Below are positions 2,176 to 17,989 of a stretch of DNA of 27,616 nucleotides, piece after piece. The notes beneath the pieces were generated by a model, which was not told the origin of the DNA, searched no databases, and saw only the letters and a list, made by a program, of their open reading frames with translations. Origin of the DNA: a virus (lineage: Duplodnaviria > Heunggongvirae > Uroviricota > Caudoviricetes); the IMG/VR virus record IMGVR_UViG_3300029887_000004; one strand, 5' to 3'. Within the stretch, counting starts at the first letter, position 1. The number at the start of each line of letters is the position of its first letter. Both the position numbers and the translations under genes were made by a program.

Positions 2176-2228
2176 ATTTTGATTCTCCCTTCTGAAATCC
2201 TTGTTTCATTTTTCTATTATTCTCCAAC

Positions 2229-2265
2229 AAAAAAAGGAACCATACACTATTCTGTATGATTCCTT
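2229..2265 (-). terminator. terminator after mazF
   Basis: AAGGAATCATAC/GTATGGTTCCTT stem with T-tail on minus strand. Confidence 0.75.
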
Positions 2266-2289
2266 CGTTTCGCATATTCATTTACATTT

Positions 2290-2616
2290 TTACATAAAGC
2301 TTGTTACTAAATCTCTAGCTTCTTTCCATATGTCTTCTGGGCATTTTTCTTTGAATTTTCCATTACGTGCTCCAATATCAAGCATTTTTGCCTGGTCACA
2401 TAATACCACGCCCGTTGTCTGCGTTCTGGCGTCCAGCTCGATATGAAACGGATGATGTTTATTTGTATTTGTAATTGGACACACCATTGCCATGGCACTA
2501 TGATAATTTAAAATATCATTGCTTATTACAAGCGCTGGTCTTCTTCCTGACTGTTCATGTCCTTGCTGCGGATTGAAATCCATTGTAATAATATCACCTT
2601 GAGTATAATTTACCAA
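2290..2616 (-). CDS. mazF: PemK/MazF-family endoribonuclease toxin
   Basis: QGDII.MDFNPQQGHEQSGRRPALVISND...VCPIT...LCDQ signature. Confidence 0.95.
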   Translation of the reverse strand: MVNYTQGDIITMDFNPQQGHEQSGRRPALVISNDILNYHSAMAMVCPITNTNKHHPFHIELDARTQTTGVVLCDQAKMLDIGARNGKFKEKCPEDIWKEARDLVTSFM

Positions 2617-2909
2617 ACTTCGTTCCCTACATGAGTACCTACATCAACCTCTTGACTACTTTCTACATAAATATCATCAATCGGTTTGTTGTAAAATGCT
2701 TCAAGCCTTTCTTTCAAGTTTAAATATTTTGGTTTTGCCTTTTTAATGGTAATAATGCCATCGTCTACGCTAATTTCTACGTTATCGTTTTCTTTTAATC
2801 CAGCACTACTAATGATTTCTTTTGATAAGCGAATACCTTGGCTATTCCCCCATTTTTTTATGGCTGTTTGTGAAATGAATATGCTTTCCTTTCTGTTCGC
2901 AATTGTCAT
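2610..2909 (-). CDS. mazE: AbrB/MazE-family antitoxin
   Basis: IKKWGNSQGIRL motif, C-terminal VGNEVW, overlaps mazF; start at ATG 2909 after GGAGG. Confidence 0.92.
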   Translation of the reverse strand: MTIANRKESIFISQTAIKKWGNSQGIRLSKEIISSAGLKENDNVEISVDDGIITIKKAKPKYLNLKERLEAFYNKPIDDIYVESSQEVDVGTHVGNEVW

Positions 2910-2940
2910 TCTTTTAGCCTCCCTGTCAAGTATACACAAC

Positions 2941-2986
2941 GGATATACCTTAATAATAGTATATACAAAGTATATCCTTTTGTCAA
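2941..2986 (-). promoter_or_regulatory. sigmaA promoter of mazEF with operator inverted repeat
   Basis: TTGACA (2986-2981), 17 bp, TATACT (2963-2958); inverted repeat GGATATAC 2941-2948 / GTATATCC 2970-2977. Confidence 0.8.
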
Positions 2987-3049
2987 TAATTTTATTCTTG
3001 CAATATTTTACAAATTAATAGGCTCATCGTTCTCATTATATTCAATCGG

Positions 3050-3094
3050 TTTACACTCCCCACAGCTAAAGCAAGGGGTTTTACGACGCATTGG
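3050..3094 (-). mobile_element. 45-bp IS200/IS605-type palindromic remnant (PATE-like)
   Basis: TTAT then CCAATGCGTCGTAAAACCCCTTGCTTTAGCTGTGGGGAGTGTAAA; single hairpin, sits between an RBS and an orphan gene tail. Confidence 0.6.
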
Positions 3095-3124
3095 ATAAAA
3101 TAGCACCTCCTTGAAATGCGGTTT

Positions 3125-3418
3125 TCATTTACTTAATACTTTCCATTTATCAATATTTTCAGTATCAAAAAACGAATGTAATTCCTCTTCTGATAATGGT
3201 GTAATTCCATAAACACCATCATATCCAAATCTTTTCAAATCATCTTTTATAAACTCTTCTGCCTCTTCAAAAGTTGGATAATGGTCTGCTTTGATTGCTA
3301 TACTATACTCCGTATCTATAAGACCTCTACTAATTTCACATCCATTTTCTGTACCATTTTTGATTTCTTCTTCTGTTGCCTTTACTCCGCAATTTAATTC
3401 GTAATATTTAATCTTCAT
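3125..3418 (-). CDS. hypothetical protein
   Basis: 97-aa ORF with GGAGG RBS; TGA stop is the start of the junction motif. Confidence 0.8.
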   Translation of the reverse strand: MKIKYYELNCGVKATEEEIKNGTENGCEISRGLIDTEYSIAIKADHYPTFEEAEEFIKDDLKRFGYDGVYGITPLSEEELHSFFDTENIDKWKVLSK

Positions 3419-3791
3419 AATATTCCTCCCAGTCCTCTTCGCTTAACAATTTCCATAATTCATAAACCATCTTTTTACACGCTTCCATATCTTCATAAAC
3501 ATCTTTCATATCATATGGCGCGCCATTAAGTCCATGTCACGTATTATCTAGCCACAAATATGCCTCATAGCTGCAATCATAATTATCATAATATTCTTCA
3601 ATATCATTTAGTAATGTATGTACATTGTTATCTTTCATTTCCGCTTCAAAACTAAAATCTTGATCTGCCGGACTGTACTTTGAAAATTCATAAGAAAAAT
3701 CGTCACCATCATTTGATTCAATATCAACTTTCCATCCGTTCTCTTCTGCAATCTCTATAATTCTATCTCTCATGGTTTGTAATTTGTTCAT
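3408..3791 (-). pseudogene. hypothetical phage protein with in-frame TGA at 3537-3539
   Basis: YLWLDNT*HGLNGAPYDMKDVYEDMEACKK...; frame continues to TAA 3408 and overlaps next start. Confidence 0.75.
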
Positions 3792-3818
3792 ATCATCAAC
3801 CTCCGATCAAATATATTG

Positions 3819-3980
3819 TTATTCACATTCTATACAATTATTTTCAATTTCTTCTTCTGTTTTCCATTCTTCAAGTCCAACGCATCTGCATTCACAACTA
3901 TCCTTTTCATCACAGTAAAAGCAACATTTAGAGCATTTACTATCTTCTGGAACAGAAACATCAATTAAACATTTCAACAT
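3819..3980 (-). CDS. small Cys-rich protein (53 aa)
   Basis: Not in track. GAGGTG RBS; MLKCLIDVSVPEDSKCSKCCFYCDEKDSCECRCVG... Confidence 0.7.
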   Translation of the reverse strand: MLKCLIDVSVPEDSKCSKCCFYCDEKDSCECRCVGLEEWKTEEEIENNCIECE

Positions 3981-4001
3981 ATTATCACCTCACCAAAATA
4001 A

Positions 4002-4322
4002 TTAATCTTCATAATTAACTCTGTACATTTCCTCATATTCTTCTGATAAACTTCTCAATACATCTTTATAGATGTAAAGCTGATTATTTTCTAAATAATT
4101 ACGCAATCCTATTTCCGTATCAAAGAATTCCTCAACGGCTGTCGAATTTGCCCATCTGTCAAAAGATGCTAATGCAGCTGCTCGCAATAACCATTTTCCA
4201 TTTGTATCACTATGTGGTTCTACAACCAGGAATAAAATTGTATCTGTTTTCGCTTGTAGTGTTGTTTCATATTCATCAACTTCATAGCCGTTATCCTCAA
4301 ACCAATTCTTTATAATATCCAT
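4002..4322 (-). CDS. hypothetical protein
   Basis: ORF track; start moved to ATG 4322 after AGGAG. Confidence 0.75.
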   Translation of the reverse strand: MDIIKNWFEDNGYEVDEYETTLQAKTDTILFLVVEPHSDTNGKWLLRAAALASFDRWANSTAVEEFFDTEIGLRNYLENNQLYIYKDVLRSLSEEYEEMYRVNYED

Positions 4323-4349
4323 AAGATACATCTCCTAAAAATGTATTTT

Positions 4350-4601
4350 TCATTTAATTCCATGCTCTTTTTCAAAATCCAATAAATTCTGAATTGCATC
4401 ATCGAATGCTTTATCTGTTGCTTCATTTTTTGTATGTGATACAACAGAACCCATATAATTTGCAAAAGACTTCAAAGCTCTATATTGTTCCATTTCTTTA
4501 ACTGTAAGACCTAGATGATCTGCTTCATGTTGCATAATTTCTTTAGCATCTTTGCTCTCATATCCGCATGTCTCACAAACATATATTGTATACTGTTTCA
4601 C
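4350..4601 (-). CDS. hypothetical protein with C2H2-like motif
   Basis: YVCETCGY...MQHEADH; GAGGTG RBS, GTG start. Confidence 0.75.
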   Translation of the reverse strand: MKQYTIYVCETCGYESKDAKEIMQHEADHLGLTVKEMEQYRALKSFANYMGSVVSHTKNEATDKAFDDAIQNLLDFEKEHGIK

Positions 4602-4614
4602 TTAATCACCTCAT

Positions 4615-4863
4615 TTACATTTCTGTAAATACTGCTCTCCAGCATCCATCTATAACTATATTGTCTCTTCTATAATCTGGCCTCTTTGAGTTCAGTTCAT
4701 GGAATTCTTCACACCCAAGATCATAAAGAATTTCTGTTAATGCATCAGCTGCAATTTCACTATCTGTCCAAGCGTAAGCTTTTTCATCTCCGTCTACACC
4801 AGAGCAACACCAGTTCTCAGTAAGACTACTCATAATAATGTGCAGTAATTTCTTTTTGTTCAC
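4615..4863 (-). CDS. hypothetical protein, paralogue of 401-702
   Basis: AYAWTDSEIAADAL vs AYAFTDSEIAANSL; GAGGTG RBS. Confidence 0.8.
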   Translation of the reverse strand: MNKKKLLHIIMSSLTENWCCSGVDGDEKAYAWTDSEIAADALTEILYDLGCEEFHELNSKRPDYRRDNIVIDGCWRAVFTEM

Positions 4864-4886
4864 ACTAACACCTCAACCTGAATACT

Positions 4887-5051
4887 TTATTCACCATCGT
4901 TTCCGTCAGAATCTCTAAGTACTGCGTTTTCAATGTAAATATCAATTCCAGCAGAAGCGCATTTACTTAGAAATTCATCCATTGCTTCATCATATGTGTT
5001 TTCGCTTGTTTTAAAATAAATACTACTGTCGCTTATATATAATTCATTCAT
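4887..5051 (-). CDS. hypothetical protein (54 aa)
   Basis: Start moved to ATG 5051 after AGGAGG that follows the junction motif. Confidence 0.7.
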   Translation of the reverse strand: MNELYISDSSIYFKTSENTYDEAMDEFLSKCASAGIDIYIENAVLRDSDGNDGE

Positions 5052-5107
5052 AACTCTACCTCCTAATAAAATGTGCTTTTCATCCGTTTTCAAATCTTTA
5101 TCTTCAT

Positions 5108-5308
5108 CTATGTTTCAACAAAATATCTATTGATAATACTTTCAGGAATTGCTAATATTCTTCCGTCACTTTTTAATTTATATAAGTTATCTCTAATCAG
5201 TCTCTTACGAATTAGAATAACTGTAGCTTTTGGTGAAATTTCATATAATGAGCCATCCCATTGATACCCATTTTGACTACAACCATTCAAAATATATTGT
5301 TTTTCCAT
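5108..5308 (-). CDS. hypothetical protein
   Basis: 66-aa ORF with GGGAG RBS. Confidence 0.7.
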   Translation of the reverse strand: MEKQYILNGCSQNGYQWDGSLYEISPKATVILIRKRLIRDNLYKLKSDGRILAIPESIINRYFVET

Positions 5309-5377
5309 TTTTTCTGTTCTCCCAAATTATAATTACCATTCCATTGATGCATCTATTTCCAATAATTTTCTATCTTC

Positions 5378-5794
5378 CTACATAACACCATAATTAGGAC
5401 GGTTGTATCTGTACCCGTGTTCATCCTTATACTTTTCAAGTGCTGCAAACATATCTCGTTCTAACTGGGAAGCCCAGTTATCCGAATTCCAATTTACGTT
5501 CACATTCCAATCTGCATATCCATCTGATTCCCATTCAATGTTTTTAATACAAACAAAATAATCAATAACGGGTGTTTTATTACCAGAACACGGAATACGA
5601 GATACCTGTTCTTCGGTTAGAATATTTAATTCTATATCTATATATCCAAATTCTAAAACCGCAACCCCTATGTACCTTTCTCCATCTTCTTCCATATTCT
5701 CCATCCAATTTTTACGAAGATCGTCAATTAGATTTTCAATTCCGTTTAAAAAGAATTTATATTCTTTAAATTTCTTTGCCTCTTCAATAGTCAT
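5378..5794 (-). CDS. hypothetical protein
   Basis: Start moved to ATG 5794 after AGGAGG that follows the junction motif. Confidence 0.8.
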   Translation of the reverse strand: MTIEEAKKFKEYKFFLNGIENLIDDLRKNWMENMEEDGERYIGVAVLEFGYIDIELNILTEEQVSRIPCSGNKTPVIDYFVCIKNIEWESDGYADWNVNVNWNSDNWASQLERDMFAALEKYKDEHGYRYNRPNYGVM

Positions 5795-5830
5795 ATATTC
5801 ACAATCCTCCTTTTGAAATTTCCGTTTCAA

Positions 5831-5983
5831 TTATATTCCAAACGCCATAAATACAATCGCACACAGCAACATACCAAATGCTGTAAGCGCTAAAGCTCCT
5901 TTAATTGTCAAGTTAGATCTTGACATATGGCTTCCCATGTACCAACATGTCAAACTAATTAATGTACATGTAATTCCTCTCAT
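5831..5983 (-). CDS. small membrane protein (50 aa)
   Basis: Not in track. GGAG RBS; MRGITCTLISLTCWYMG...GALALTAFGMLLCAIVFMAFGI; ATG overlaps upstream TGA. Confidence 0.7.
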   Translation of the reverse strand: MRGITCTLISLTCWYMGSHMSRSNLTIKGALALTAFGMLLCAIVFMAFGI

Positions 5984-6132
5984 TTTTTTATCTCCTTTGT
6001 TCTCAAACATTTCTCTTTATAAGCATATTCTCTGTCATAAACTTCTTTATAGAATTGAATATCCTGTGCTGTTGCTCTTTTTACTTTCTCTATACAATTT
6101 TGTAAAAAAGCCAAACTTTCTTCCTTATTCAA
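5980..6132 (-). CDS. hypothetical protein (50 aa)
   Basis: Start moved to TTG 6132 after GGAGG that follows the junction motif. Confidence 0.7.
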   Translation of the reverse strand: MNKEESLAFLQNCIEKVKRATAQDIQFYKEVYDREYAYKEKCLRTKEIKK

Positions 6133-6163
6133 ATGTTTTCCTCCTATACTTTCCGTTTCACTG

Positions 6164-6529
6164 TTATTTCCACCCAATATCTTTCGGTGTAATTTCAATA
6201 TAACAATGTGGTATGCACGATTTACCGAAGTTTACACCAATAAAAATACTTGTGTCTCTTAAAGATATTTCTGTACTTGTAATTTTACAAAATTTTATAA
6301 TATACCACGGTAATTTATTCTTGATCCATGTCATTCTCATTGAATCACTATCTGAAATTTTCTCATAAAGCGAATACATTTCATTTTTCTTTGTCTCATA
6401 TTCTCTTCTATCATTAATAATTTCATCCCTACATTCCTGATACATCTTACAATACTGTTCATCAAGGCTATTTGATAATTCAATCAAGGATGTCTGTATA
6501 CTCTTCAATCTTTCGTAACTATTTCTCAT
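6164..6529 (-). CDS. hypothetical protein
   Basis: 121-aa ORF with GAGGAG RBS. Confidence 0.75.
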   Translation of the reverse strand: MRNSYERLKSIQTSLIELSNSLDEQYCKMYQECRDEIINDRREYETKKNEMYSLYEKISDSDSMRMTWIKNKLPWYIIKFCKITSTEISLRDTSIFIGVNFGKSCIPHCYIEITPKDIGWK

Positions 6530-6546
6530 ATAAAATCACTCCTCAT

Positions 6547-6741
6547 TTATAATTTAACTCCATCAGTAGGGAGTTCGAATTCTTTTACCAGTTCATCAAA
6601 TACATCATCTGGCATCTGACTTAGATTATCTTCAATATCCTCTTTACTGAAATCATGGTTTGCATATCCGAAAAACTGTTCAATCTGTTCATTGTTTGCC
6701 TTATGTAATATAAAGTCCATCATCATTTCTTCAATATCCAT
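6547..6741 (-). CDS. hypothetical acidic protein
   Basis: 64-aa ORF with AGGAGG RBS. Confidence 0.75.
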   Translation of the reverse strand: MDIEEMMMDFILHKANNEQIEQFFGYANHDFSKEDIEDNLSQMPDDVFDELVKEFELPTDGVKL

Positions 6742-6774
6742 ATTATTTTCCTCCTAATACTTTCCATTTCATTA

Positions 6775-7086
6775 CTACTCATAATCTCTACATAAATCCA
6801 ATACTGTATCAATAATATTCTGTACGGAATTAATTCCATACCCACTCAACATATCAAACGAAGAATTGTCAGATACATATACTAAATCACAATAATGACA
6901 CCATCCATCTTCTTCGTTATTAACAAATGTAATTTCAAGATTAATTTCGTTTGTTAATGGATATTGCCAAGCTCTGTTATCAAACGATGTTGGTTTATTT
7001 CCATTTCCGCTCCACATTTCAGGATTCATTTCTTTTAAAAACTCTGATACTATTTCAGTTGCTTTTTCTCTTGTCATATTATCCAC
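6775..7086 (-). CDS. hypothetical protein
   Basis: 103-aa ORF; start may be ATG 7077. Confidence 0.75.
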   Translation of the reverse strand: MDNMTREKATEIVSEFLKEMNPEMWSGNGNKPTSFDNRAWQYPLTNEINLEITFVNNEEDGWCHYCDLVYVSDNSSFDMLSGYGINSVQNIIDTVLDLCRDYE

Positions 7087-7101
7087 TCGCTTTCTTATTA
7101 T

Positions 7102-7278
7102 TTATGTATTGTGATAACCAATCGGTTCTTCACCTCTTAACTTGAGTTCCATTCTTAAAGCTTCAACAGAAACACATCCTGCAATAGGTTGGTTACAATC
7201 AACTGACATCCAAATTCTGTTTTTAATCTCTTCTGTTGTCCAATCTTTTACTTTTTCTAATTCCCATTCATACACCAT
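7102..7278 (-). CDS. hypothetical protein (58 aa)
   Basis: Not in track. GGAGG directly after junction motif; MVYEWELEKVKDWTTEEIKNRIW... Confidence 0.75.
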   Translation of the reverse strand: MVYEWELEKVKDWTTEEIKNRIWMSVDCNQPIAGCVSVEALRMELKLRGEEPIGYHNT

Positions 7279-7345
7279 GTTATTTCCTCCTGAAATCTAC
7301 GTTTCATCTATATAATTCACGTTTACACTTCTATCTAACAAATCA

Positions 7346-7519
7346 TCATTTCTTTTTGTTCTCTTTGACTTCGAATGAAATGTTACAAGTTGCAAATGGA
7401 CACTTCCAACATTCATAATGTTTACCTTTGTCACAATTTTTCTCATTCACAATACAACCTTGTTCATGAATGTAATCTCTTTCTTCAAATGAATTACAAA
7501 TAATTTTTATAAAATTCAT
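7346..7519 (-). CDS. small Cys-rich protein (57 aa)
   Basis: Not in track. MNFIKIICNSFEERDY...YECWKCPFATC; flanked by junction motifs. Confidence 0.7.
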   Translation of the reverse strand: MNFIKIICNSFEERDYIHEQGCIVNEKNCDKGKHYECWKCPFATCNISFEVKENKKK

Positions 7520-7548
7520 ATTTTTCCACCCTATAAATCATCGTTTCA

Positions 7549-7866
7549 TCAGTTTTCTACTTCTACAAAAACAGTGTACTCAATTCCATTACATTCAAAA
7601 TTCCATTCACCGTCATATGTGCAACCTGGCTCTGTGCATGTCAACTCAAACCCATTATGGAATAATACCCCTTCTGTATATGGAGCTTCTTCTTCACAAA
7701 TTACTAATTTAATATCCACTTCAATTCCGTTTGGGAATTTTGCGGCGTGTGTAATCGTCTCATCTCGTTTATACCCATATTTCTGATAAATTTCATCGCC
7801 TGTAAGATTAAGTAAATCGTTAATTAACTTCATTTCCGCGTTTGAAATTTTAATTGTTTGTACCAT
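7549..7866 (-). CDS. hypothetical protein
   Basis: Start moved to ATG 7866 after GGAGG. Confidence 0.8.
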   Translation of the reverse strand: MVQTIKISNAEMKLINDLLNLTGDEIYQKYGYKRDETITHAAKFPNGIEVDIKLVICEEEAPYTEGVLFHNGFELTCTEPGCTYDGEWNFECNGIEYTVFVEVEN

Positions 7867-7918
7867 AATATTTTCCTCCAATTCTAAAATCCAAATGAAA
7901 ATCTTGTTTCATCTAATA

Positions 7919-8113
7919 TTAATTTATGGGTTCTACCATATCAAATCTTGCCACGTTCAGGTACCTCGCTTTTAAATTAGAATTGTATGTTGCAGCAATT
8001 TCCATACATTGACTTCTACAATTCTGCTTATACTCACAGCTGCCACATTCATCTGTTTCACTTTCCTGATATGATAAGATTTTGTCTTCATAGTCATTTT
8101 CCCAATGTTCCAT
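7919..8113 (-). CDS. small Cys-containing protein
   Basis: CGSCEYKQNCRSQC; AGGAG RBS. Confidence 0.7.
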   Translation of the reverse strand: MEHWENDYEDKILSYQESETDECGSCEYKQNCRSQCMEIAATYNSNLKARYLNVARFDMVEPIN

Positions 8114-8124
8114 TTCCGTTTCTC

Positions 8125-8364
8125 CTAAATTCCGAGTAAATCTTCTAATTCTCTCATCCGATCATGCTTAAAACCAATACATACAAGTGCCTGAAGAATA
8201 CCTTCTGAATATCCTCTGTGATTTTCAGCTTTCATCCGTAAAATTTCAAAATGCACTCTGCTATCGGTTTCATTTGCTTCTGTAAATTCTTTAATCGCCC
8301 GATTTGCATTTCGAATTCCTTCTTCCATAACTCTTTTACAATTTTCACATTCTGTTTTATTCAT
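8125..8364 (-). CDS. hypothetical protein
   Basis: 79-aa ORF. Confidence 0.7.
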   Translation of the reverse strand: MNKTECENCKRVMEEGIRNANRAIKEFTEANETDSRVHFEILRMKAENHRGYSEGILQALVCIGFKHDRMRELEDLLGI

Positions 8365-8444
8365 TTACATCGCTCTCACTTTCTGTTATAATAACTATTC
8401 AAGGAATTGGGGACTTACATGGAATTTCCATTGCCCCATTGTTG

Positions 8445-8537
8445 TTAGCCTTCAATATATTCCCAGGCTTCTCGTTCTGTTGGAAAAGCAATGCTGCATC
8501 CTGGGATATACCAGTTTCCGTATTTCATGTACGGCAT
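8445..8537 (-). CDS. 30-aa peptide
   Basis: Not in track. AAGGAGGTG RBS; MPYMKYGNWYIPGCSIAFPTEREAWEYIEG. Confidence 0.65.
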   Translation of the reverse strand: MPYMKYGNWYIPGCSIAFPTEREAWEYIEG

Positions 8538-8567
8538 AGCTACACACCTCCTTGTATGTATTTATAG

Positions 8568-8596
8568 AAAAAGCAGAGAACGCCATCTCTGCTTTT
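8568..8596. terminator. terminator-like hairpin, possibly bidirectional
   Basis: AAAAAGCAGAGA-ACGCCA-TCTCTGCTTTT. Confidence 0.75.
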
Positions 8597-8659
8597 ATCT
8601 ATCTCGTTATGTTATTCTCTCTTTTGGAATTGCTATTCTATCCGTAAAAATCTACATTT

Positions 8660-8872
8660 TTACTCTCCAACCTCAAACAATTCGTCACCGGAAAAATCAA
8701 CCATATCTTGTAAAACGGCATGAGCAAATTCCTTTGCATAGTCTGTCCATATCTTATATTGTAATTCTTCCGGATTTAATTCATTAAGTCCATAATCTTT
8801 GACGAGTGCCTTTATAATGTTTTTCATTCTGTATTCATAATTTTCTTCAGTAGTGTGAATATGCATATACAT
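8660..8872 (-). CDS. hypothetical protein
   Basis: 70-aa ORF with GGAGG RBS. Confidence 0.7.
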   Translation of the reverse strand: MYMHIHTTEENYEYRMKNIIKALVKDYGLNELNPEELQYKIWTDYAKEFAHAVLQDMVDFSGDELFEVGE

Positions 8873-8875
8873 AAT

Positions 8876-9085
8876 TTAAACCTCCTCATAATCTTCAAGT
8901 AATTCTTTTAAATTTCCTTTTCTCCATCTATGTAGTTTTCTATCTCCTAATAGATTTTTAACATTGACTTCTGTCCAGTACATATACTGTTTGACGGCAT
9001 TGTGATAATATCCGTCATTATGAACTTCAATATATTTATTTTTATTTTTCTTATTTCTATAGATTTTTATTACCACAATTTTCAC
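8876..9085 (-). CDS. hypothetical basic protein
   Basis: 69-aa ORF. Confidence 0.7.
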   Translation of the reverse strand: MKIVVIKIYRNKKNKNKYIEVHNDGYYHNAVKQYMYWTEVNVKNLLGDRKLHRWRKGNLKELLEDYEEV

Positions 9086-9097
9086 CGTCTCTCTTTT

Positions 9098-9289
9098 TCA
9101 AATCTCTTCAAGAATCCATTTCTCAACAAAATCAAGTACAGCTTCAGGGATAACACCATCTATTCCTTCGCCATAATTGAATGTTTTTCCTACAAGTGTT
9201 GTTTCAAACTTAATGTCCTCGTTGTATATAATTTTATATGTTCTTAATCTACCAACTTCTCTTACTAATTCGACTCTCAAAACATTCAT
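9098..9289 (-). CDS. hypothetical protein
   Basis: 63-aa ORF with AAGGA RBS. Confidence 0.7.
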   Translation of the reverse strand: MNVLRVELVREVGRLRTYKIIYNEDIKFETTLVGKTFNYGEGIDGVIPEAVLDFVEKWILEEI

Positions 9290-9337
9290 TCTTTTTTATC
9301 CTTTTCATTATTATTTGAATTAATTCACGTATTGTTT

Positions 9338-9736
9338 TTACACATCCATAGAAATGCAATGGTAAGCCCACCATCTTCCATTTCTTTCAACAAGTTTGTA
9401 CCAACTCGTAAATCTCTGTCCCGTACAATCAAACACAGAAGGAACACATTCCATATATTCATTATATTGGAACCATTCATCCGCTGTTTCCCTTGTAGTG
9501 ATTTCTTCTGGAAGTCGAAGTAATTCAATATACCCGTCAATTCCATTTTCATGCACAATATGTCTTTCTGGTTTTTCATTCTCTCGTTTATAAATTTCAC
9601 GAATTTTTCTTTTCCTTTTGAGAATTTTATCTCCGCATATTTCATTTACATCGTATCCTTGCTGTTCACACAGTTCTTTACAAATTTGAATCGCCTCATA
9701 GTATCCCCATAATCTGTGCTTTGTCTCATAATCCAT
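9338..9736 (-). CDS. hypothetical phage protein
   Basis: 132-aa ORF with FDCTGQRFT motif; GGAG RBS. Confidence 0.8.
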   Translation of the reverse strand: MDYETKHRLWGYYEAIQICKELCEQQGYDVNEICGDKILKRKRKIREIYKRENEKPERHIVHENGIDGYIELLRLPEEITTRETADEWFQYNEYMECVPSVFDCTGQRFTSWYKLVERNGRWWAYHCISMDV

Positions 9737-9756
9737 ATTTCACATCTCCATTTTAT

Positions 9757-9939
9757 CTATTCCAGATCCGCAAATCTGCCATCGTAATTCTGTTTCCACG
9801 ACCTATAAACTCCGTTTGTATCACGAAACTCTAAGTAATATGCCTCTCTCCATTCCCACGGCTCCTGTCATGCAATCTCTTTAATTGTACAAACAATGCC
9901 CTGACAATGAATTCTATCTCCTGGCCGTAAGTCTCTCAT
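9757..9939 (-). pseudogene. small hypothetical gene with in-frame TGA at 9868-9870
   Basis: GGAG RBS; MRDLRPGDRIHCQGIVCTIKEIA*QEPWEWREAYYLEFRDTNGVYRSWKQNYDGRFADLE. Confidence 0.7.
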
Positions 9940-9962
9940 AATTATTCTCCCTTCTCTGTAAT

Positions 9963-9999
9963 AAAATAGGCAGCTAGGTATTTATTCTCCTAACTGCCT
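9963..9999 (-). terminator. intrinsic terminator
   Basis: AGGCAGTTAGG/CCTAGCTGCCT stem then ATTTT. Confidence 0.65.
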
Positions 10000-10008
10000 T
10001 GCTGTATT

Positions 10009-10230
10009 TTAATCATTATAAGGTTCATAAAGATTCCGAACTGTTGTCATACATTTCATCATCAACCCGAAATCATTAAGTCTATCAAGATCTTTGATGA
10101 TCGTCGTGTCACCGCACACATTGATAAGAATACATTTCGCATTCTCACAATAATCTACTGTGACGCGTCCTTCGTTTGTATATACGTTTTCCTCAAACAT
10201 CTCATTCATTTTCTTGATCCAGTTTTCCAT
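10009..10230 (-). CDS. hypothetical protein
   Basis: 73-aa ORF with AAGGAGG RBS. Confidence 0.75.
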   Translation of the reverse strand: MENWIKKMNEMFEENVYTNEGRVTVDYCENAKCILINVCGDTTIIKDLDRLNDFGLMMKCMTTVRNLYEPYND

Positions 10231-10243
10231 TATGTATTCCTCC

Positions 10244-10468
10244 TTACTTTACCTTCATCAGCAGCTTACCAAGTTCATTTGCATCTACCACACTACAGAT
10301 CGCAGTTGCCTTCGTGCTTTCAGTTCCATCTTTCCGTGAAAACTTCGTGACCATGTATACCTTATCAGGCATTTCTTTGCCATCAACAGTGTAATGTCCG
10401 ATTTCCACTGTGTTTTTACCAATAGTTCCAATTTCTCTTGTCTTGCTGTAAATAAATTCTTTTGCCAT
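10244..10468 (-). CDS. hypothetical protein, possibly PC4/YdbC-like ssDNA-binding
   Basis: GGAGG RBS; EFIYSKTREIGTI...KATAICSVVDANELGKLL loosely resembles YdbC. Confidence 0.45.
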   Translation of the reverse strand: MAKEFIYSKTREIGTIGKNTVEIGHYTVDGKEMPDKVYMVTKFSRKDGTESTKATAICSVVDANELGKLLMKVK

Positions 10469-10471
10469 GAT

Positions 10472-10642
10472 TTAGTCCTCCGTTTCAATTTCATTCCCAT
10501 CATCATCTTCCAACCAATATTTTAGACCGAGATAATCTGTATCTCTCAAATTTTCTACTAGCATTTTCGCTTTCGGAACAGAAACAGTTGATTTTAATTT
10601 TCTGGCTTGTGTTTCTACACCATCACTTGCTACAACGTACAC
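10472..10642 (-). CDS. hypothetical protein (56 aa)
   Basis: Not in track. GGAGG RBS, GTG start; MYVVASDGVETQARKLKST...YWLEDDDGNEIETED. Confidence 0.65.
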   Translation of the reverse strand: MYVVASDGVETQARKLKSTVSVPKAKMLVENLRDTDYLGLKYWLEDDDGNEIETED

Positions 10643-10824
10643 ATTCCCTTGCCTCCTTCCATTACAGATTTTCTTGTTGCAAATAATCGACCGTCAAGAC
10701 TCATATATACATCAACCATTGTATTTTCTGTTCTTACATACAAAACGGTCATATGCCGCAAAGTGTCCTTCTGTATATACAGTACGGGTTCATACCGATC
10801 AAAGATTTTTATCCAAATCACCAT
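10630..10824 (-). CDS. hypothetical protein
   Basis: 64-aa ORF overlapping both neighbours. Confidence 0.65.
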   Translation of the reverse strand: MVIWIKIFDRYEPVLYIQKDTLRHMTVLYVRTENTMVDVYMSLDGRLFATRKSVMEGGKGMCTL

Positions 10825-11120
10825 AAAATCGCTTTCCTTTCTGTGATTACTAACAGCCCGAATAAAATGAACGTTACCCCTAACGGCCAGGTATCGCTTG
10901 CATATCTAATGAGTAGATATCCAACAATCATAAGCATCACACAAAAGATTTTCTGTGCTATGTATTTACGGCGTTCTATTTCTCTTTTGCGCCTTGCTTT
11001 CTCTTTTTGAATTTCCATTTCGCGCTGCTGTTCGATGTGCTGACGGTACTTTTCATAGTCGGTAATGTCAACAATATTGTAATGATCCGGATCGAACACG
11101 GCGCAATGTGGGACTTTCAT
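10818..11120 (-). CDS. membrane protein with two C-terminal TM helices
   Basis: IFCVMLMIVGYLLI and WPLGVTFILFGLLVI. Confidence 0.75.
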   Translation of the reverse strand: MKVPHCAVFDPDHYNIVDITDYEKYRQHIEQQREMEIQKEKARRKREIERRKYIAQKIFCVMLMIVGYLLIRYASDTWPLGVTFILFGLLVITERKAILW

Positions 11121-11361
11121 TTTTCTTCATTCCTTTCACTTTTTTATTCGACACAAGGTTATTCTCTTTAATCAGTCTTGCTTTTACTTCTCTATTCAGC
11201 CGTGTATTTACTTCAATTCTCTTGTGAGTTACACGGTTTAAATAATGTAAGTGTGATCCAGTACCATCTCTTCCGTTCACTCTTGTTTCTCTGAATCCAT
11301 TAGGAAATAAATATTCCCTTTCAAAATCCAGAACTTCCTTTGGCTTTCGTCGTCTCGACAT
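11068..11361 (-). CDS. HicA-like toxin family protein (solitary)
   Basis: NGFRETR...GSHLHY...RIEV...RLIKENNL matches the HicA pattern including the GSH histidine. Confidence 0.6.
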   Translation of the reverse strand: MSRRRKPKEVLDFEREYLFPNGFRETRVNGRDGTGSHLHYLNRVTHKRIEVNTRLNREVKARLIKENNLVSNKKVKGMKKNESPTLRRVRSGSLQYC

Positions 11362-11771
11362 TATTCATCATCTCCTTTTAATAATCCGAAAAATTCTAAT
11401 TCTGCATCATCCATAGCACATTCATTCATGAAATATTCGTACTGTTCTTCATCTGTCATATTACATTCTTCCAGAAGAGTATCTTTCCATTGTGTTGCAA
11501 GTTCTTCCAGGCGTGAACGTGGAATATAATAATTTTCCGTTTTGTAACGAAATGAATCAATCGCATTCTGTAAAACAAAGATTTCTGGCGTTCCACAGGT
11601 TCCATAATTTCCATACATCCATGAGGCAGCAGTGTAAGCCCAACTTCCATCAGCACAGATGTCGGATACGATCTTGTACTCTTCTGTGTTTTCCATTTTG
11701 ATGAGTGCGTACTCTTTCTTTTGAGCAATGATTTCATAATCAAAGCCAGCTGGATTATGTCGTGTTTCCAT
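11361..11771 (-). CDS. hypothetical protein
   Basis: 136-aa ORF with GGGAG RBS. Confidence 0.8.
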   Translation of the reverse strand: METRHNPAGFDYEIIAQKKEYALIKMENTEEYKIVSDICADGSWAYTAASWMYGNYGTCGTPEIFVLQNAIDSFRYKTENYYIPRSRLEELATQWKDTLLEECNMTDEEQYEYFMNECAMDDAELEFFGLLKGDDE

Positions 11772-11789
11772 TTTATTCTCCCTTCTTCC

Positions 11790-12035
11790 TTATACAAATT
11801 CGATTAGATTAATTCCTAAGTTCTCCTCTAACGATTCAAGGAAAATTTCTCCATCTTCTTTGTTTTTGCAGTAATTCACCAAAGATGTCACACGTAATTC
11901 ATTGTCGCTTTCCTGCAATTTCCCTTCAAACATCGCACAAACTTCATTCCAAAGATCATCGTTTGTTTCCAGCTCTACAGATAAATCTGTAAACCGTTTC
12001 TGTTTTAATAAGTTGTACCGTAATGTTTCTTTCAT
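11790..12035 (-). CDS. hypothetical protein
   Basis: Start moved to ATG 12035 (MKETLRY). Confidence 0.7.
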   Translation of the reverse strand: MKETLRYNLLKQKRFTDLSVELETNDDLWNEVCAMFEGKLQESDNELRVTSLVNYCKNKEDGEIFLESLEENLGINLIEFV

Positions 12036-12253
12036 TTTCTCTTCCTCTCTTTCTCGTGATTGAATCAAATAATCACATCAGCACAGACAAGGTAACTTAC
12101 CTTCTCTGCACTGTCTAACTACTTAATTTTCACTTTCGCTTTCGGATAAATACTCTTCAAGTCCTGCATATTCGTCATCCGAAAGCAGATTCCGTAAATC
12201 ATCCATTGACATAATCATTATTCTCCTTTCTCGTTTGTGTTTTTGAGTGAAAG

Positions 12254-12289
12254 AAAACACCATCAGTTAGCTAGGCTGACGGTGTTTCT
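12254..12289 (-). terminator. intrinsic terminator
   Basis: AAACACCGTCAG/CTGATGGTGTTT stem with T-tail. Confidence 0.7.
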
Positions 12290-12379
12290 TCCTATATATA
12301 TGTGGAGGGATAAGGTGGTGCTTTCTTATTCCGAACTCCCTATGTAAAATATGTATATGTATTGCTTGCTATGTATTAT

Positions 12380-13314
12380 TTATTTTGCCTGTACAGGTTC
12401 TGGCTGAATCATAAATACATGTTTGCCTTCTGTTTTTCTTACATGTTTCCGTTTTGCCTTCTCAACAAGAATATCTTCCATGAATAAACTTGTTGCAATT
12501 TTAAAATCGAGCAACGGATATTTTGTAACCGCATTCGCTTTCAGAAAAAGAGGATCAATACCTCTTAAATATTTGACGAGAACTTCTGCATTTTCAGTTC
12601 TGGTATAAGGATACAGTTTATATACATCTCGTAATGCTCTCATCACATATGTACTATATCCATTTGCCTTTCTGTCAAAGCCTGCACGTTTGCAAATATC
12701 AAAAACATAATCTGCCACGTTTTCTCCCTTCTTGCAAAGATCGAGTGCCTCTGTATAGCTTCCTAATACTGATGCCCGCGCTTGCCAGAACTCTGTACAA
12801 ATTCAAAACCGTACTTACCTTTGAGCTGTTCAAGAATTTCTGTTGCTTTATCATGCATGATTAATCTAGCGCCGTGTGTCTGCGGAGCTGTCATTTTTGC
12901 AACAAATTTATTCTGGAAGGCATACATTTTAGCTTCATATATTCTTCTTTCCGTTGGATCTTGCGGTGCATTTAATGCAACCATAACCCGTAAATCATCT
13001 TTAGGATTTACAATCATCTGTGAAGCAATCCATCTGCCGTAACCATCAAAAAGGTAAATTTTGCCTTCTTCCCAGTGCGGGACGCCCTGTAACGGCTGAC
13101 ACTGGTTATCATCCCAATTCGAAACAAGATAATTTAAATTTCTGTCCGTTCTTGCTTCGATCTGATAAGATGGATCAATTTCCAACAAGTCAACCGGAAC
13201 TGAAAGAACCTCGTTTGGTGCATTTCTATCAACTGCATCTTTGAGTAAACCTTTTAACATTCCTACGTTCCCTTTGTTTTCTCTTCCTGTTACTTCTTTA
13301 AATTTCTTACACAT
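12380..13314 (-). pseudogene. ParB/Srx-like (DUF6551-like) gene split by a frameshift near 12776
   Basis: VPVDLLEIDPSYQ...IYLFDGYGRW ParB-like motifs; one extra G in GGG (12775-12777) joins both ORFs as GKRGASVLGSYTEALDLCKKGENVADYVF. Confidence 0.7.
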
Positions 13315-13372
13315 AATTTTATTCTCCTTTTTATGTTTTATTATTTTGAATTTCCCTTTGATTTTGAGCATA

Positions 13373-13403
13373 AAAATAACAGGTATATTTCAACCTGCTT
13401 TTC
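13373..13403 (-). terminator. terminator-like hairpin with conserved tail
   Basis: GCAGGT/ACCTGT stem then TATTTTTATGCTCAAAAT. Confidence 0.6.
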
Positions 13404-13415
13404 TATTCTCTGTGT

Positions 13416-13619
13416 TCAGTTTTCGAAACCACATAATGTATATGGTTCTAATGTACATACCATATAACAATATATAGCATTATCATACAGTATGTCATCT
13501 TCGGCAATTCGCTTCCAATTTTCAAGCGTTGCCTTTTCATTTTCTCTTAGTCCTCCACCGTATTCTTTCCAGATCGTATCACGGCTTGCAATGTTTAGTT
13601 CTGCAAGTCTACGATCCAT
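13416..13619 (-). CDS. hypothetical protein (start probably further upstream)
   Basis: Frame stays open about 20 codons upstream to an ATC behind AAAGGAG. Confidence 0.65.
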   Translation of the reverse strand: MDRRLAELNIASRDTIWKEYGGGLRENEKATLENWKRIAEDDILYDNAIYCYMVCTLEPYTLCGFEN

Positions 13620-13709
13620 TTGCCGTAAAGATTCTATACGGCGGTTTAGTGACCAGCTTTCTATTTTGCGTTGTGTGATTGTGCATCAGCTCCTTTCTGT
13701 AATTTTGCC

Positions 13710-14270
13710 TTACCGGATTCTATAATAAATTTCATCAATCATTCTTGCTCTTACTGCTCCGTCAAAGATATAGAAAGCTCCTGTTTCTTTGTCAATGAAT
13801 GCATTTCCGAAATCAACCTTTACAATCTTGCCGCATTCTCTCAGAACTTTTAATCCGGTTTTAGTCACAAGCTCTGTAATTTCTGTTTCTGTCATGAATG
13901 GATTTCCGTTTGCCTTTTCCAGAATTTTCTGATAGCAGATTTCCGCCAGTTCCCTTTCTGCTTCTTTCTGTTTGTAAAATGCCTGACGGCTGATGTCACG
14001 GAACAGATCGTCTAACGCTTCCTTTACCTGCTGCAAAGTAAGATATTCCTCGTGGAGTTTCTTGTATTTTCCTACAGACTCGTTGAATTTCCGTTCTTCC
14101 GCCAGCTTGTTGCAATACTGGACTGCTGCCGCAAATTCTGCTTCTGTCATATCACAGGTAAAGATGATGACTTCCGGTTTCTCTTTTGCTTCAAAGTCGA
14201 TTCCGGATAATGCAAGATAAGAATAAAAACTTGCGCTACTTGTTACTTTGATTTCAAATACTTTTCTCAT
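13710..14270 (-). CDS. hypothetical protein
   Basis: Start moved to ATG 14270 (MRKVFEIK) after AAAGGG. Confidence 0.8.
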   Translation of the reverse strand: MRKVFEIKVTSSASFYSYLALSGIDFEAKEKPEVIIFTCDMTEAEFAAAVQYCNKLAEERKFNESVGKYKKLHEEYLTLQQVKEALDDLFRDISRQAFYKQKEAERELAEICYQKILEKANGNPFMTETEITELVTKTGLKVLRECGKIVKVDFGNAFIDKETGAFYIFDGAVRARMIDEIYYRIR

Positions 14271-14354
14271 GATTTTTAATTTCCCTTTCTTAATTAATTT
14301 GATTATGTATATATTATGCATAATTATAAGTGCATAACTTATAATTCATAGTTC

Positions 14355-14528
14355 TTAGTGCGGCGAAATGATCCAGTTTCCGTTGTTCGCTTCGCCAAAA
14401 GCATAAACATACGCAATACACAGAAGAGATGGAATAATATTCCACATACTAGCTTCCAAACTGAGCATGAACCAGATTGCGCCGATCCATGCCAGGATAT
14501 AACTTACTTTTAAAATTTTATCTCTCAT
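14355..14528 (-). CDS. small membrane protein (57 aa)
   Basis: Not in track. AAGGAG RBS; MRDKILKVSYILAWIGAIWFMLSLEASMWNIIPSLLCIAYVYAF... Confidence 0.7.
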   Translation of the reverse strand: MRDKILKVSYILAWIGAIWFMLSLEASMWNIIPSLLCIAYVYAFGEANNGNWIISPH

Positions 14529-14587
14529 TTTTTTCTCCTTTGCTTTTTTGTTTTATTCTCTATTTGCCTTTTTCGAATTTTGAGTAC

Positions 14588-14623
14588 AAAAATAACAGCC
14601 ATCGTTTTCGTGATGGCTGCTAT
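14588..14623 (-). terminator. terminator after HigBA-like pair
   Basis: GCAGCCATC/GATGGCTGT stem then TATTTTTGTACTCAAAAT. Confidence 0.75.
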
Positions 14624-14654
14624 TAAAATGTATACAGTATTTAGTTTATAAGGA

Positions 14655-14936
14655 CTATTTCCGCAATGGGACAATATCTAATGTATATCCCATTGGTACA
14701 AGCAATTTAATAAGTGTGTCAATCTGCGGCACTGCTTTCATACTTTCCATTCTGGCGATCGCTGACTGTTTAACTCCGCTTGCCTTTGCAAGTTGGGTCT
14801 GAGAGAATCCGCTGGACTCTCTCATCTCCTTTACTTTCTCAATCAATGCGACTTCAAAATTGATTTCTGCCTTGTCTTCTTCGGAAAAATATTCCGGATC
14901 GTTGAACATATCTTCGAAATTTTTATGCGCTTTCAT
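14655..14936 (-). CDS. XRE HTH antitoxin (HigA-like)
   Basis: RESSGFSQTQLAKASGVKQSAIARMES...PQIDTLIKLL; directly downstream of toxin. Confidence 0.88.
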   Translation of the reverse strand: MKAHKNFEDMFNDPEYFSEEDKAEINFEVALIEKVKEMRESSGFSQTQLAKASGVKQSAIARMESMKAVPQIDTLIKLLVPMGYTLDIVPLRK

Positions 14937-14938
14937 AG

Positions 14939-15301
14939 CTATTTTCCCTCTCTTTCTAACCAGTCTCGCATATTTGCCTTTGCCTTTTCGATTTCTCTTT
15001 TCGGCGCTTTCTGCGACTTTTTCATGTAATGACTTAGTAACACAAACTTATTCTCTTTCCAGTAGAAGAAGAAAATTCGATTCTTTAATGGTCGCAGTTC
15101 CCAAACATCTCCTTCGATCGGTCGGACTACAGGATATCCGATTCTTGTGCCGTTTCGCTTAAGCAACAAAATATATTCTGCAATCTTGTTCATGTTGATT
15201 CTTGCGTTTTTATCTGTCTTTGCCTTTTCCGCAAGCTCTGCGAAATATTCTCCAATTTCGCAATGATCGTTTGCGTCCTTATAAAATTCTACTGTATACA
15301 T
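14939..15301 (-). CDS. RelE/ParE superfamily toxin (HigB/Gp49-like)
   Basis: YTVEFY...GDVWELRP..NRIFFF...FVLLSHYMKKSQKAPKREIEKA. Confidence 0.9.
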   Translation of the reverse strand: MYTVEFYKDANDHCEIGEYFAELAEKAKTDKNARINMNKIAEYILLLKRNGTRIGYPVVRPIEGDVWELRPLKNRIFFFYWKENKFVLLSHYMKKSQKAPKREIEKAKANMRDWLEREGK

Positions 15302-15328
15302 TTATTATATTCCTCCTTCGTCAAGTTT

Positions 15329-15357
15329 ATTATAACATATTTGTTATAACTGTACAA
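15329..15357 (-). promoter_or_regulatory. sigmaA promoter of the TA pair with operator palindrome
   Basis: TTGTAC, 17 bp, TATAAT; palindrome TTATAACA-TATT-TGTTATAA at 15330-15349. Confidence 0.8.
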
Positions 15358-15379
15358 GATAGAATTTTATGTTTGCCTT

Positions 15380-15766
15380 TTAGTTTTCTCTTGTCAGTCC
15401 GAAAATCTCATAAACGTTTCCATCTTTTGTATAAATTCGGATTTTGCCTTCTGCCTTTTCTACGTCTACAATGTCATTAAGTCCCACGTATGCCTTGTTG
15501 AACTCATATTCGTTTGCAGACTTATAGGCGTAAAATTCATAGCCGTCACTTGTCATAAGTGCCAGTTCTTCGCCGTTAGTATTCCAATCTACTACGTCAG
15601 CAATAAACGAATCGGCGTAGCTGTAATCATGTTCGGCGGAATAGTCAAGTTTTCGGTTGTTGGTTTCCGTTGCGGAGTTCTGCCGTGATACGGTTGTATT
15701 GATCGCTGCGATTCCGGAAAAGATAGTTGTTGCTGTTAAGAGTGTGATGACTAATTTTTTGAACAT
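15380..15766 (-). CDS. putative secreted protein
   Basis: Signal-peptide-like MFKKLVITLLTATTIFSGIAA; GGAGG RBS. Confidence 0.75.
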   Translation of the reverse strand: MFKKLVITLLTATTIFSGIAAINTTVSRQNSATETNNRKLDYSAEHDYSYADSFIADVVDWNTNGEELALMTSDGYEFYAYKSANEYEFNKAYVGLNDIVDVEKAEGKIRIYTKDGNVYEIFGLTREN

Positions 15767-15840
15767 AGTTCTGTTCCTCCTTTTTGGTTTGCGTTTGGAT
15801 TTGCGTTTTTAGTTTGAAAATCAAAATTAAAAAAGGGCAT

Positions 15841-15876
15841 AAAAAAAGCACCCTAACCAAAAATGGTTAGAGTGCC
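15841..15876 (-). terminator. intrinsic terminator
   Basis: GCACTCTAACCA/TGGTTAGGGTGC stem then T7. Confidence 0.8.
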
Positions 15877-15887
15877 TGATATACCTA

Positions 15888-16166
15888 TTACAATTTTTCT
15901 AATTTCTCTTGCAAAGCTGCAATCTGAGATTGCAATTCTGCTTTTTCTTTTGCGTTGTCAGCGTCATCAAAAATGACGTCAACAATATCATTGGGTGTAC
16001 AACGAAAATATTCACATAATTTCCCTATTGTTTCCATTGTGACACTTTCATTTTTCCGCAGATGATCAAGTGTACTTCCCCCAACGCCAACTTCTTTTTT
16101 TAAATCTAAATGTTTTATATTTTCGCTTTTCATTCTGTCGAAAAGTTTTGAATAATCTAATTTCAT
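15888..16166 (-). CDS. Cro/C1-type (XRE) transcriptional regulator
   Basis: LDYSKL...DLKKEVGVGGSTLDHLRKNESVTMETIGKLCEYFRCTPNDI; ATG 16166 after GGAGG. Confidence 0.88.
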   Translation of the reverse strand: MKLDYSKLFDRMKSENIKHLDLKKEVGVGGSTLDHLRKNESVTMETIGKLCEYFRCTPNDIVDVIFDDADNAKEKAELQSQIAALQEKLEKL

Positions 16167-16205
16167 TTTCTTTTTCCTCCTCACCTCCATTCTATCATAT
16201 AATTT

Positions 16206-16631
16206 TTAATTATACAATACAGTATAAGACTGTGGAAAATCATGCAAGGTTCTTTTTGCGCATTCATAATCCGTGACGGTTCCGCAGAACTTGCCCAGGA
16301 ACTCGCCACCAGTTCCCTTCTTCTTTGCACGTTCATGGCGCATCATGGCAGAATAGTTCCCGTTGTACTTTTTGCCTTCTGCCTTGCGCCGCTGCCGTGA
16401 TTCTCGGATCTGGAAATCCCACAACATTTCCGTGTATTTATTTTGTGCGGTCGTGACAATCCAACGGGAACCGTCCCACACTTCTATTCTGATTCTGCCT
16501 TTATTGTGCCGTTTGAAAGCATCCGGCAAAGCTACGATCATAGTTCCGTTTGAAGCGGAAAGAATAATCGTGTTCATTGGAAAATCTACCTTGTGAATTT
16601 CCTCAGATCTAAATATCTTATACACTTTCAT
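16206..16631 (-). CDS. hypothetical basic protein
   Basis: 141-aa ORF with GGAGG RBS. Confidence 0.8.
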   Translation of the reverse strand: MKVYKIFRSEEIHKVDFPMNTIILSASNGTMIVALPDAFKRHNKGRIRIEVWDGSRWIVTTAQNKYTEMLWDFQIRESRQRRKAEGKKYNGNYSAMMRHERAKKKGTGGEFLGKFCGTVTDYECAKRTLHDFPQSYTVLYN

Positions 16632-16633
16632 TT

Positions 16634-17041: not shown

Positions 17042-17140
17042 AATTTACCTTCTTTCTACCATTTTTGGCATGGTTGCCTTTTTATTTTTTGTAAAACCAT
17101 TGGGCGGAATTGCACCGCCCTTTTTCTATACTAATGGTCA

Positions 17141-17974: not shown

Positions 17975-17989
17975 AATTGTTCCATTTCT

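Follow-up and report, generated by a model that had tools for sequence, protein, structure and literature searches.

The 27,616-nucleotide window analyzed here, the end of the 112,891-bp virus record IMGVR_UViG_3300029887_000004 (a large gut phage, Caudoviricetes; G000 below, 55% complete), carries on its minus strand an array of 16-bp palindromes of the form TGAAA-N6-TTTCA. Comparison of G000 with its relatives indicates that these palindromes are probably fixed crossover joints, each bearing an address in its six-base centre, and that a tyrosine recombinase likely exchanges DNA between matching addresses. The close relatives of G000 are 200–217 kb long; no near-identical phage was found among cultured phages.

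All 12 TGAAA-N6-TTTCA-like 16-mers that an earlier sequence-only reading of the window had listed were recovered at their coordinates on the minus strand. Compared with TGAAA-N6-TTTCA, five are perfect (7896, 7291, 5814, 3112, and 2193), one has a single mismatch (5067), two have two (7533 and 4337), three have three (7338, 6145, and 5328), and one has four (6756). The visibly conserved arms are symmetric and 5–7 bp long. Sites usually lie 0–25 bp past a stop codon and 12–30 bp ahead of the next start; at 3125 and 4350 the TGA of the motif is itself the stop codon, as had been noted. The enrichment that the reading had called for is evident in the full record: perfect copies number 17 at spacer 6, compared with 2, 0, 0, 0, 0, 0, and 2 at spacers 3, 4, 5, 7, 8, 9, and 10, and three local shuffles of G000 gave only 1–3 perfect spacer-6 copies. 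Consistent with the expected preference for gene junctions, non-coding DNA, which makes up 18% of the record, contains 15 of the 17 perfect and 11 of the 23 one-mismatch copies. Positions 8000–18000 are indeed devoid of non-coding sites (none over 24 genes versus six over 24 genes in 1–8000), but the array is not limited to 2193–7911, as had been supposed: in record coordinates, sites are spread between about 10 and 93 kb. In the complete relative G001, only 2 of 34 matches fall in 72–160 kb.

If sites are exchange points, changes in gene content among relatives should fall at the motif, and many of them do. A scan with a recombinase gene neighbouring the window (see below) gave 26 loci, 25 of which were compared with the window's region. 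A 1-kb fragment (L032) was left out of all locus comparisons, and breakpoints were counted over 24 loci plus the window's own locus, leaving out the 2.8-kb L028. The 2901 block ends were dereplicated to 390, the dereplication being approximate and the events not independent. Windows of strong sites (at most one mismatch) occupy 2.3% of bases and 293 of 1201 junctions; 205 of the 390 breakpoints fell at a strong site, 150 of them in both partners and 55 in one. The rest were at weak sites (16), at site-free junctions (148), or within genes (21). At sites, right ends of shared blocks lay at +14 to +18 in 65 of 103 cases and left ends at −2 to +2 in 73 of 102; hence shared sequence stops at the edge of the palindrome. 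When 14-mers were ranked, blind to the motif, by the unrelated flanks found on both sides, the top 19 were all sites, as were 67 of 98 overall (overlapping words were counted separately). Downstream gene classes had at least two upstream partners in 29 of 37 cases with a site and in 38 of 86 without (p = 7e-4).

Contigs from public runs supplied independent cases, with one block replaced between 5083 and 6147 and another between 5083 and 7893. Run X1 contains the joints 5083>6147, 6744>7284, and 7307>7892, with a 24-bp island retained at 7284–7307. In run X8, a deletion (6135>6746) with ten shared letters joins the degenerate sites 6145 and 6756. The downstream part of the array likewise shows joints and 20–22 bp islands at sites; other joints in the same runs lie away from sites. 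No backward (circle) joint at a site appeared in contigs of six runs, but contigs drop rare forms, so this does not establish absence.

The six-base centres behave as addresses. Every site has its own centre, and relatives keep the centres in one order (judged by eye across 25 close relatives) with different genes in between. Pairs of loci that share only the left flank of a site have an identical centre in 110 of 126 cases, and pairs that share only the right flank in 90 of 120 (pairs are not independent). At G000 80312, a single centre joins six left to nine right flank classes. The order extends to a distant phage, G010, which aligns to only 5,772 of the 112,891 bases of G000 (about 5%): its 44 sites repeat 11 of the 40 G000 centres (the null mean being 1.0 and the highest of 5000 null values 7), ten of the 11 are collinear, and nine have both flanks at the random level. 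In phage SPbeta the arms read TAAAA-N6-TTTTA. Among its 34 perfect sites, 24 recur in phi3T, 25 in SPR, and 23 in BUCT082 (105 of 125 kb of which were compared), with both flanks unrelated at 6, 7, and 9 of them, respectively. One centre is present twice around a block in L026, in L027, and at 6145/5814 of the window. Separately, at G000 79230 (L005 11230–11245) the centre is the reverse complement of the one that most relatives have there, with the left flank in the same orientation, which suggests that the centre alone may have been inverted.

Arm variants place the crossover inside the site. The left arm was constant in 29 of 37 left-flank classes, the right arm in only 8 of them. All four combinations of two left-arm and two right-arm variants are found at G000 78308, every variant accompanied by its own flank, and this confines the crossover to a window of 12 bp. 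Six such quartets at true sites have shared runs of 12–19 bp, all spanning the centre; three more of the nine detected were dropped as they stem from a shifted look-alike within a gene. Since arm variants travel with their own flank, the crossover lies within a core as short as 12 bp. Operators kept whole would carry both arms together; instead the arms are split by flank, again pointing to a crossover inside the site. This geometry, namely inverted arms around a centre of fixed length (6 bp only, within the 6–8 bp of tyrosine recombinase sites), exchange in the core, and matching centres without flanking homology (exceptions: 16/126 and 30/120 pairs), fits a tyrosine recombinase, as the sequence-only reading had suggested.

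We propose that the enzyme would bind the two arms, cut across the 6-bp centre, and require matching centres. Because of this requirement, copies within one genome would rarely recombine with each other, and mismatched addresses would protect each genome from self-deletion. A pair of crossovers between a prophage and a related phage that enters or co-infects the cell would replace a single slot or several consecutive ones, leaving gene order and operon intact; with the site located between stop codon and ribosome-binding site (RBS), an incoming promoterless gene would be expressed from upstream early promoters. Near-matching centres may now and then recombine, yielding deletions, duplicated addresses, and re-addressed genes. 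Such near-match exceptions explain the deletions and duplicated addresses and also the gene that sits at another address pair in L029.

As the sequence-only reading had stated, the window contains no recombinase gene, but one begins about 1 kb beyond its first base. This gene (G000 83304–84308) lies inside the array, encodes an intact tyrosine recombinase with all catalytic residues, and is present in all five near-complete close relatives (which were found by means of it). We rejected it as the enzyme of exchange: it has no match in G010, where addresses are kept on both sides of its position, or in G006–G008. Against cultured phages it gave generic 23–30% matches only, defining no family, and no relative of it was found in GTDB contigs. 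A second recombinase, encoded about 50 kb from the array, is constant in the five near-complete relatives; 190 phage records match it, 139 of them over 80% of its length, and SPbeta YomM is one of the matches. By its layout, and by YomM as shared through its relatives, G000 resembles SPbeta.

The YomM-like gene tracks the motif better than the neighbouring recombinase does. Copies of TRAAA..TTTYA at spacers N6/N7 numbered 36/8 in SPbeta, 34/12 in FADO, 42/8 in E3, 16/0 in Nyseid, 24/14 in LIBA6276, 13/7 in SEP9, 13/7 in AM5, 9/4 in VPE25, 34/8 in G001, and 32/6 in G002, versus 1/4 in SPO1, 2/1 in A511, and 4/6 in Lb338-1, the controls. Thus N6 exceeded N7 in eight of eight YomM carriers, and N6 was 1–4 in three of three controls. 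The controls have no PF00589 match, and in SEP9, VPE25, and Nyseid the YomM-like protein is the only one; this model misses YomM itself in SPbeta and E3. Non-coding copies make up 31 of 36 N6 copies in SPbeta, 33 of 34 in FADO, and 10 of 15 in Nyseid, with lower values in SEP9 (6/13), VPE25 (6/9), and AM5 (6/13). Only three of 306 G001 proteins have counterparts in at least four of six cultured phages, namely a DnaB-type helicase (in 6), the YomM-like protein (in 5), and a replication-region protein encoded next to it (in 4). In the cultured-phage loci L047, L052, L046, L048, and L049, YomM-family genes stand beside large tail or lysis genes, away from the site arrays. We tentatively favor a YomM-family enzyme of the late region, rather than the array's neighbour, as the recombinase of exchange; this is our least certain inference. 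SPbeta-like and related large Firmicutes phages would then perform a natural, recombinase-driven cassette exchange in which about 30 sites with common arms and unique addresses partition the accessory genome into slots that a YomM-family enzyme swaps between phage genomes, a picture that may hold and that we value just short of an even chance.

Several observations weigh against this interpretation. Among breakpoints, the 148 at site-free junctions and the 21 inside genes have no site to account for them, and upstream gene classes differ only marginally in having at least two partners (25 of 37 with a site, 41 of 88 without; p = 0.049). The many partners at site-free junctions imply that these exchange often too. 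In SPbeta, only 6 of 36, 10 of 51, and 7 of 36 breakpoints (against phi3T, SPR, and BUCT082) fall at sites, whose windows cover 1.8% of bases. The contrast between arms is small on the right side, where right-flank classes have a constant right arm in 26 of 42 cases and a constant left arm in 21 of 42, and the centre differs in 16 of 126 left-flank-sharing and 30 of 120 right-flank-sharing pairs, often by 1–2 bases. The visible arms, at 5–7 bp, are short as well. As for the enzyme, the contig that holds the window lacks the YomM-like gene, which in relatives lies about 50 kb from the array and here would be past the contig's end. YomM of SPbeta and E3 has H-x-x-K in place of H-x-x-R; the SPbeta copy lacks one catalytic arginine. 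Four gut phage records with 77–78% identical YomM have only 3, 6, 7, and 2 perfect sites, site enrichment is weak in SEP9, VPE25, and AM5, and the three controls are all Herelleviridae, so that co-occurrence with YomM is confounded by ancestry. Finally, G000 also codes for a Sak4-like annealing protein, and no enzyme activity, binding, or circle was observed. On balance, we regard the address-coded exchange joints as real and a tyrosine recombinase as their likely enzyme.

The most serious competing explanation, which we nevertheless consider unlikely, makes each palindrome a regulator's site, a stoperator-like roadblock, with exchange arising by annealing on 12–19 bp through Sak4 or another general recombination protein, only full matches being able to anneal. 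The Sak4-like gene of G000, the many breakpoints at site-free junctions, and the ten-letter deletion between degenerate sites 6145 and 6756 would all be expected under it. However, shared identity goes down to 12 bp and partners have mismatches in their arms, RBS-type words just as short are much weaker hubs than the sites, the Sak4-like gene is not among the 12 G001 genes with matches in at least two of the six cultured phages, and virulent phages carry the motif too. Two literature parallels lend it weight: the position between stop codon and RBS is like that of Cluster A mycobacteriophage stoperators (PMC6550527), and SPbeta has a recombinase-derived repressor, MrpR, that acts on another repeat (PMC10516654). 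In contrast, a Sak4 recombineering assay employed an 81-mer (PMC5928155). An operator by itself, one of the alternatives offered in the sequence-only reading, cannot explain crossovers within the site unless such 12–19 bp annealing is added.

It is improbable that the same joints are served by the neighbouring recombinase, a YopP-like protein, or the host Xer enzymes. The neighbour has its catalytic residues, its constancy in five relatives, and its place in the array to recommend it, set against its lack of a match in G010 and G006–G008 and its generic resemblance to proteins of cultured phages. SPbeta has a second PF00589 protein (79.1–79.6 kb), and an enzyme other than YomM would avoid the H-x-x-K defect of SPbeta YomM. 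For host Xer, the difficulty is that the same arms are found in phages of Bacillus, Lactobacillus, Staphylococcus, Enterococcus, and Lactococcus, five host genera that use different Xer systems.

Still less probable is an integron-like process in which single genes are excised as circles and captured or reordered at any site. The sequence-only reading had inferred gene shuffling by comparison with integrons; the change of gene content at sites upholds the first part, and the comparison fails, there being no stacking at a single attI, no loss of order, and no integron integrase. Promoterless genes that follow sites, duplicated centres (6145/5814, L026, and L027), and the gene at a different pair in L029 would suit such a process. 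However, address order is conserved, where integrons admit cassettes at one attI with reordering, and the two candidate recombinases score 22.4 and 41.8 bits with the integron integrase model TIGR02249, against a cut-off of 265. The sites also differ from attC in being 16 bp long, in that homology ends at their edges, and in their weak RNA folds, with no strong hairpin.

An RNA stem-loop for processing or translational coupling, also raised by the sequence-only reading, is hardly credible: the palindrome does lie just ahead of the RBS, and one of six folded sites reaches −5.6 kcal/mol (z −2.1), but the other five have z of −0.2 to −1.5, the best structure leaves the arms unpaired in two of the six, the loop length never departs from 6, an RNA role leaves unexplained why centres are conserved where both flanks are unrelated, and Rfam gave no match in the window.

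Taken individually (all on the minus strand), the palindromes of the window vary in how well they behave as joints. At 7896..7911 (perfect arms), the block in an X5 contig is replaced up to 7893, and G001 has the same centre with an unrelated left flank. The joint at 7533..7548, with two mismatches in its right arm, is delimited by shared blocks of relatives and by comparison of arms and flanks. The perfect joint at 7291..7306 is the 24-bp island whose flanks are both replaced in an independent contig, and is a hub of six left and five right flanks. Three joints are present also in the distant phage G010: 5814..5829 (perfect), 5067..5082 (one mismatch; a hub of five left and seven right flanks, with two runs breaking at 5083), and 3112..3127 (perfect), where the TGA is the stop of the upstream gene. 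The same use of TGA is found at 4337..4352 (two mismatches), where blocks start at 4353/4354; at the perfect joint 2193..2208 they start at 2209–2213. The degenerate joint at 6145..6160 has a centre identical to that of 5814, a block starts at 6160 in many relatives, and the X1 joint 5083>6147 falls here. Another degenerate joint, 6756..6771, has lost its right arm; its centre is one base off the 6145/5814 centre, and a block of the relatives ends within 6726–6793. The degenerate right half of 6145–6160 and 6756–6771, taken with the RBS that follows, is a hub in its own right, joining three unrelated left to three unrelated right flanks, and may be a second kind of linker. The copy at 7338..7353 (three mismatches) is a tentative case, in which L009 has the same centre with better arms. 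Finally, 5328..5343 (three mismatches) is better regarded as a weak look-alike than as a joint: no breakpoint falls inside it, and the closest contig end, at 5319, is 9 bp off.

A single-gene slot is exemplified by the gene at 7549..7881 (minus strand), between joints 7896 and 7533: relatives share the block 7882..7535 at 89%, and in L029 the gene lies between a different joint pair. Among 23 genes of window positions 720–7866, PHROGs and Pfam gave names only for DUF5983 and for mazEF. The latter, a mazE-mazF toxin-antitoxin pair with family profile matches (2290..2986, minus strand), occupies the slot between 3112 and 2193; its entry point in relatives is not the joint itself but a position 59 bp upstream. 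The statement that units lack an evident promoter therefore needs an exception here, as mazEF has its own promoter-like site (2986–2958, 11/12) and a terminator-like one (2266–2233). No strong promoter- or terminator-like site was found at the joints, except for a weak terminator-like hairpin overlapping 3112; there are 26 weaker promoter matches besides. Nearby, a 42-bp element (3057–3098) is common to many unrelated contigs and gives depth spikes in four of four runs; it is presumably the end hairpin of an IS200/IS605-type element.

Positions 1–18000 of the window, read on the minus strand, are the beginning of the early arm, behind a perfect promoter-like site at 18868–18840. The first early genes (8000..18000, minus strand), downstream of this 12-of-12 site, are free of joints. 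They include a Gp49-like (DUF891) gene followed by a helix-turn-helix gene (14655–15301), the order of a RelE/HigB-type toxin-antitoxin pair. The stretch at 18000–20400 (about 2.4 kb) may be an origin or genome end: coding is sparse there, the GC skew switches, short repeats occur, and the early promoter-like site with its perfect match lies within it. Elsewhere, G000 codes for DNA polymerase III alpha, a DnaB-like helicase, ribonucleotide reductase, a C5 methylase, and the Sak4-like protein. An intein lies within the C5 methylase (81195–83246), and a nicotinate phosphoribosyltransferase gene is in two pieces adjoining an HNH/NUMOD endonuclease gene (58699–61418). Genes for TerD, vWA-TerF, and a P-type ATPase are followed by a kinase, RNA ligase, and RlaP-type RNA repair cluster (36427–45869); a Tpt1 gene and a second mazF are found at about 73.6–75.7 kb, and an RRXRR-HNH gene at 66908–68455.

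How phage genomes become mosaic at gene boundaries has long been asked, and the usual answer is illegitimate recombination at random, with selection acting afterwards. In the present phages, a sizeable fraction of these boundaries coincides with built-in, ordered joints that persist between phages sharing about 5% of their DNA. As SPbeta has the system too, the standard genetics of B. subtilis 168 offers a means of testing it. If true, the proposal assigns a function to a conserved recombinase that is present even where a phage is not known to integrate, and it provides a naturally occurring collection of short recombination sites that are mutually orthogonal. Should exchange run through annealing at operator sites instead, the system would be a form of the linker model without a dedicated enzyme.

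Searches of the open-access literature found no description of this system; subscription papers and supplements lay beyond its scope, so an earlier mention of the SPbeta repeats is possible. A search with the motif letters returned an unrelated archaeal match only, and one for yomM together with SPbeta returned none. An engineered counterpart is cassette exchange with heterospecific lox or FRT sites, built of 13-bp arms around 8-bp spacers: sites recombine only if their spacers match, and a cassette is swapped by two crossovers. The phage sites share with these the combination of common arms and differing spacers. Natural Cre and Flp use one site type. Integrons consist of IntI, attI, and attC. 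Like them, the array places short promoterless genes between recombination-type sites; unlike them, it has no IntI, folded attC, single attI, or reordering.

Two families of regulatory sites invite comparison. Cluster A mycobacteriophage stoperators are 13-bp sites oriented with transcription (PMC6550527), and SPBRE is a 15-bp motif in ten SPbeta promoter regions that is bound by MrpR (PMC10516654). As far as the accessible text of these papers goes, they too are short sites of a temperate phage, present in dozens and often away from promoters, but neither is described there as a crossover point with a copy-specific centre. SPBRE is provisionally taken to be a different element from the present sites by its number and position.

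The pdif sites of Acinetobacter plasmids resemble the phage sites in having a 6-bp centre that varies. They are recombinase-type sites of 28 bp, with 11-bp XerC and XerD arms recognized by host enzymes, and many of them flank accessory modules, as here (PMC6449649). The phage sites differ from the 28-bp, 11-bp-arm design in their symmetric 5–7 bp arms, their phage carrier, and their roughly 30 addresses in one order. The PeSLs of T4-type phages are cassettes of a promoter and a terminator-type stem-loop, for which homologous recombination has been proposed and which form mini-circles (PMC2839356). The present sites, which lack the promoter and stem-loop carried by each PeSL, are 16 bp long, promoterless, fixed in order, and specific to each copy in their centres. 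Like PeSLs and the linkers of Botstein and Campbell, they are repeats between accessory phage genes that act as targeted points of exchange and protect the neighbouring genes (PMC2839356). The sites realise the linker idea discussed for PeSLs (PMC2839356).

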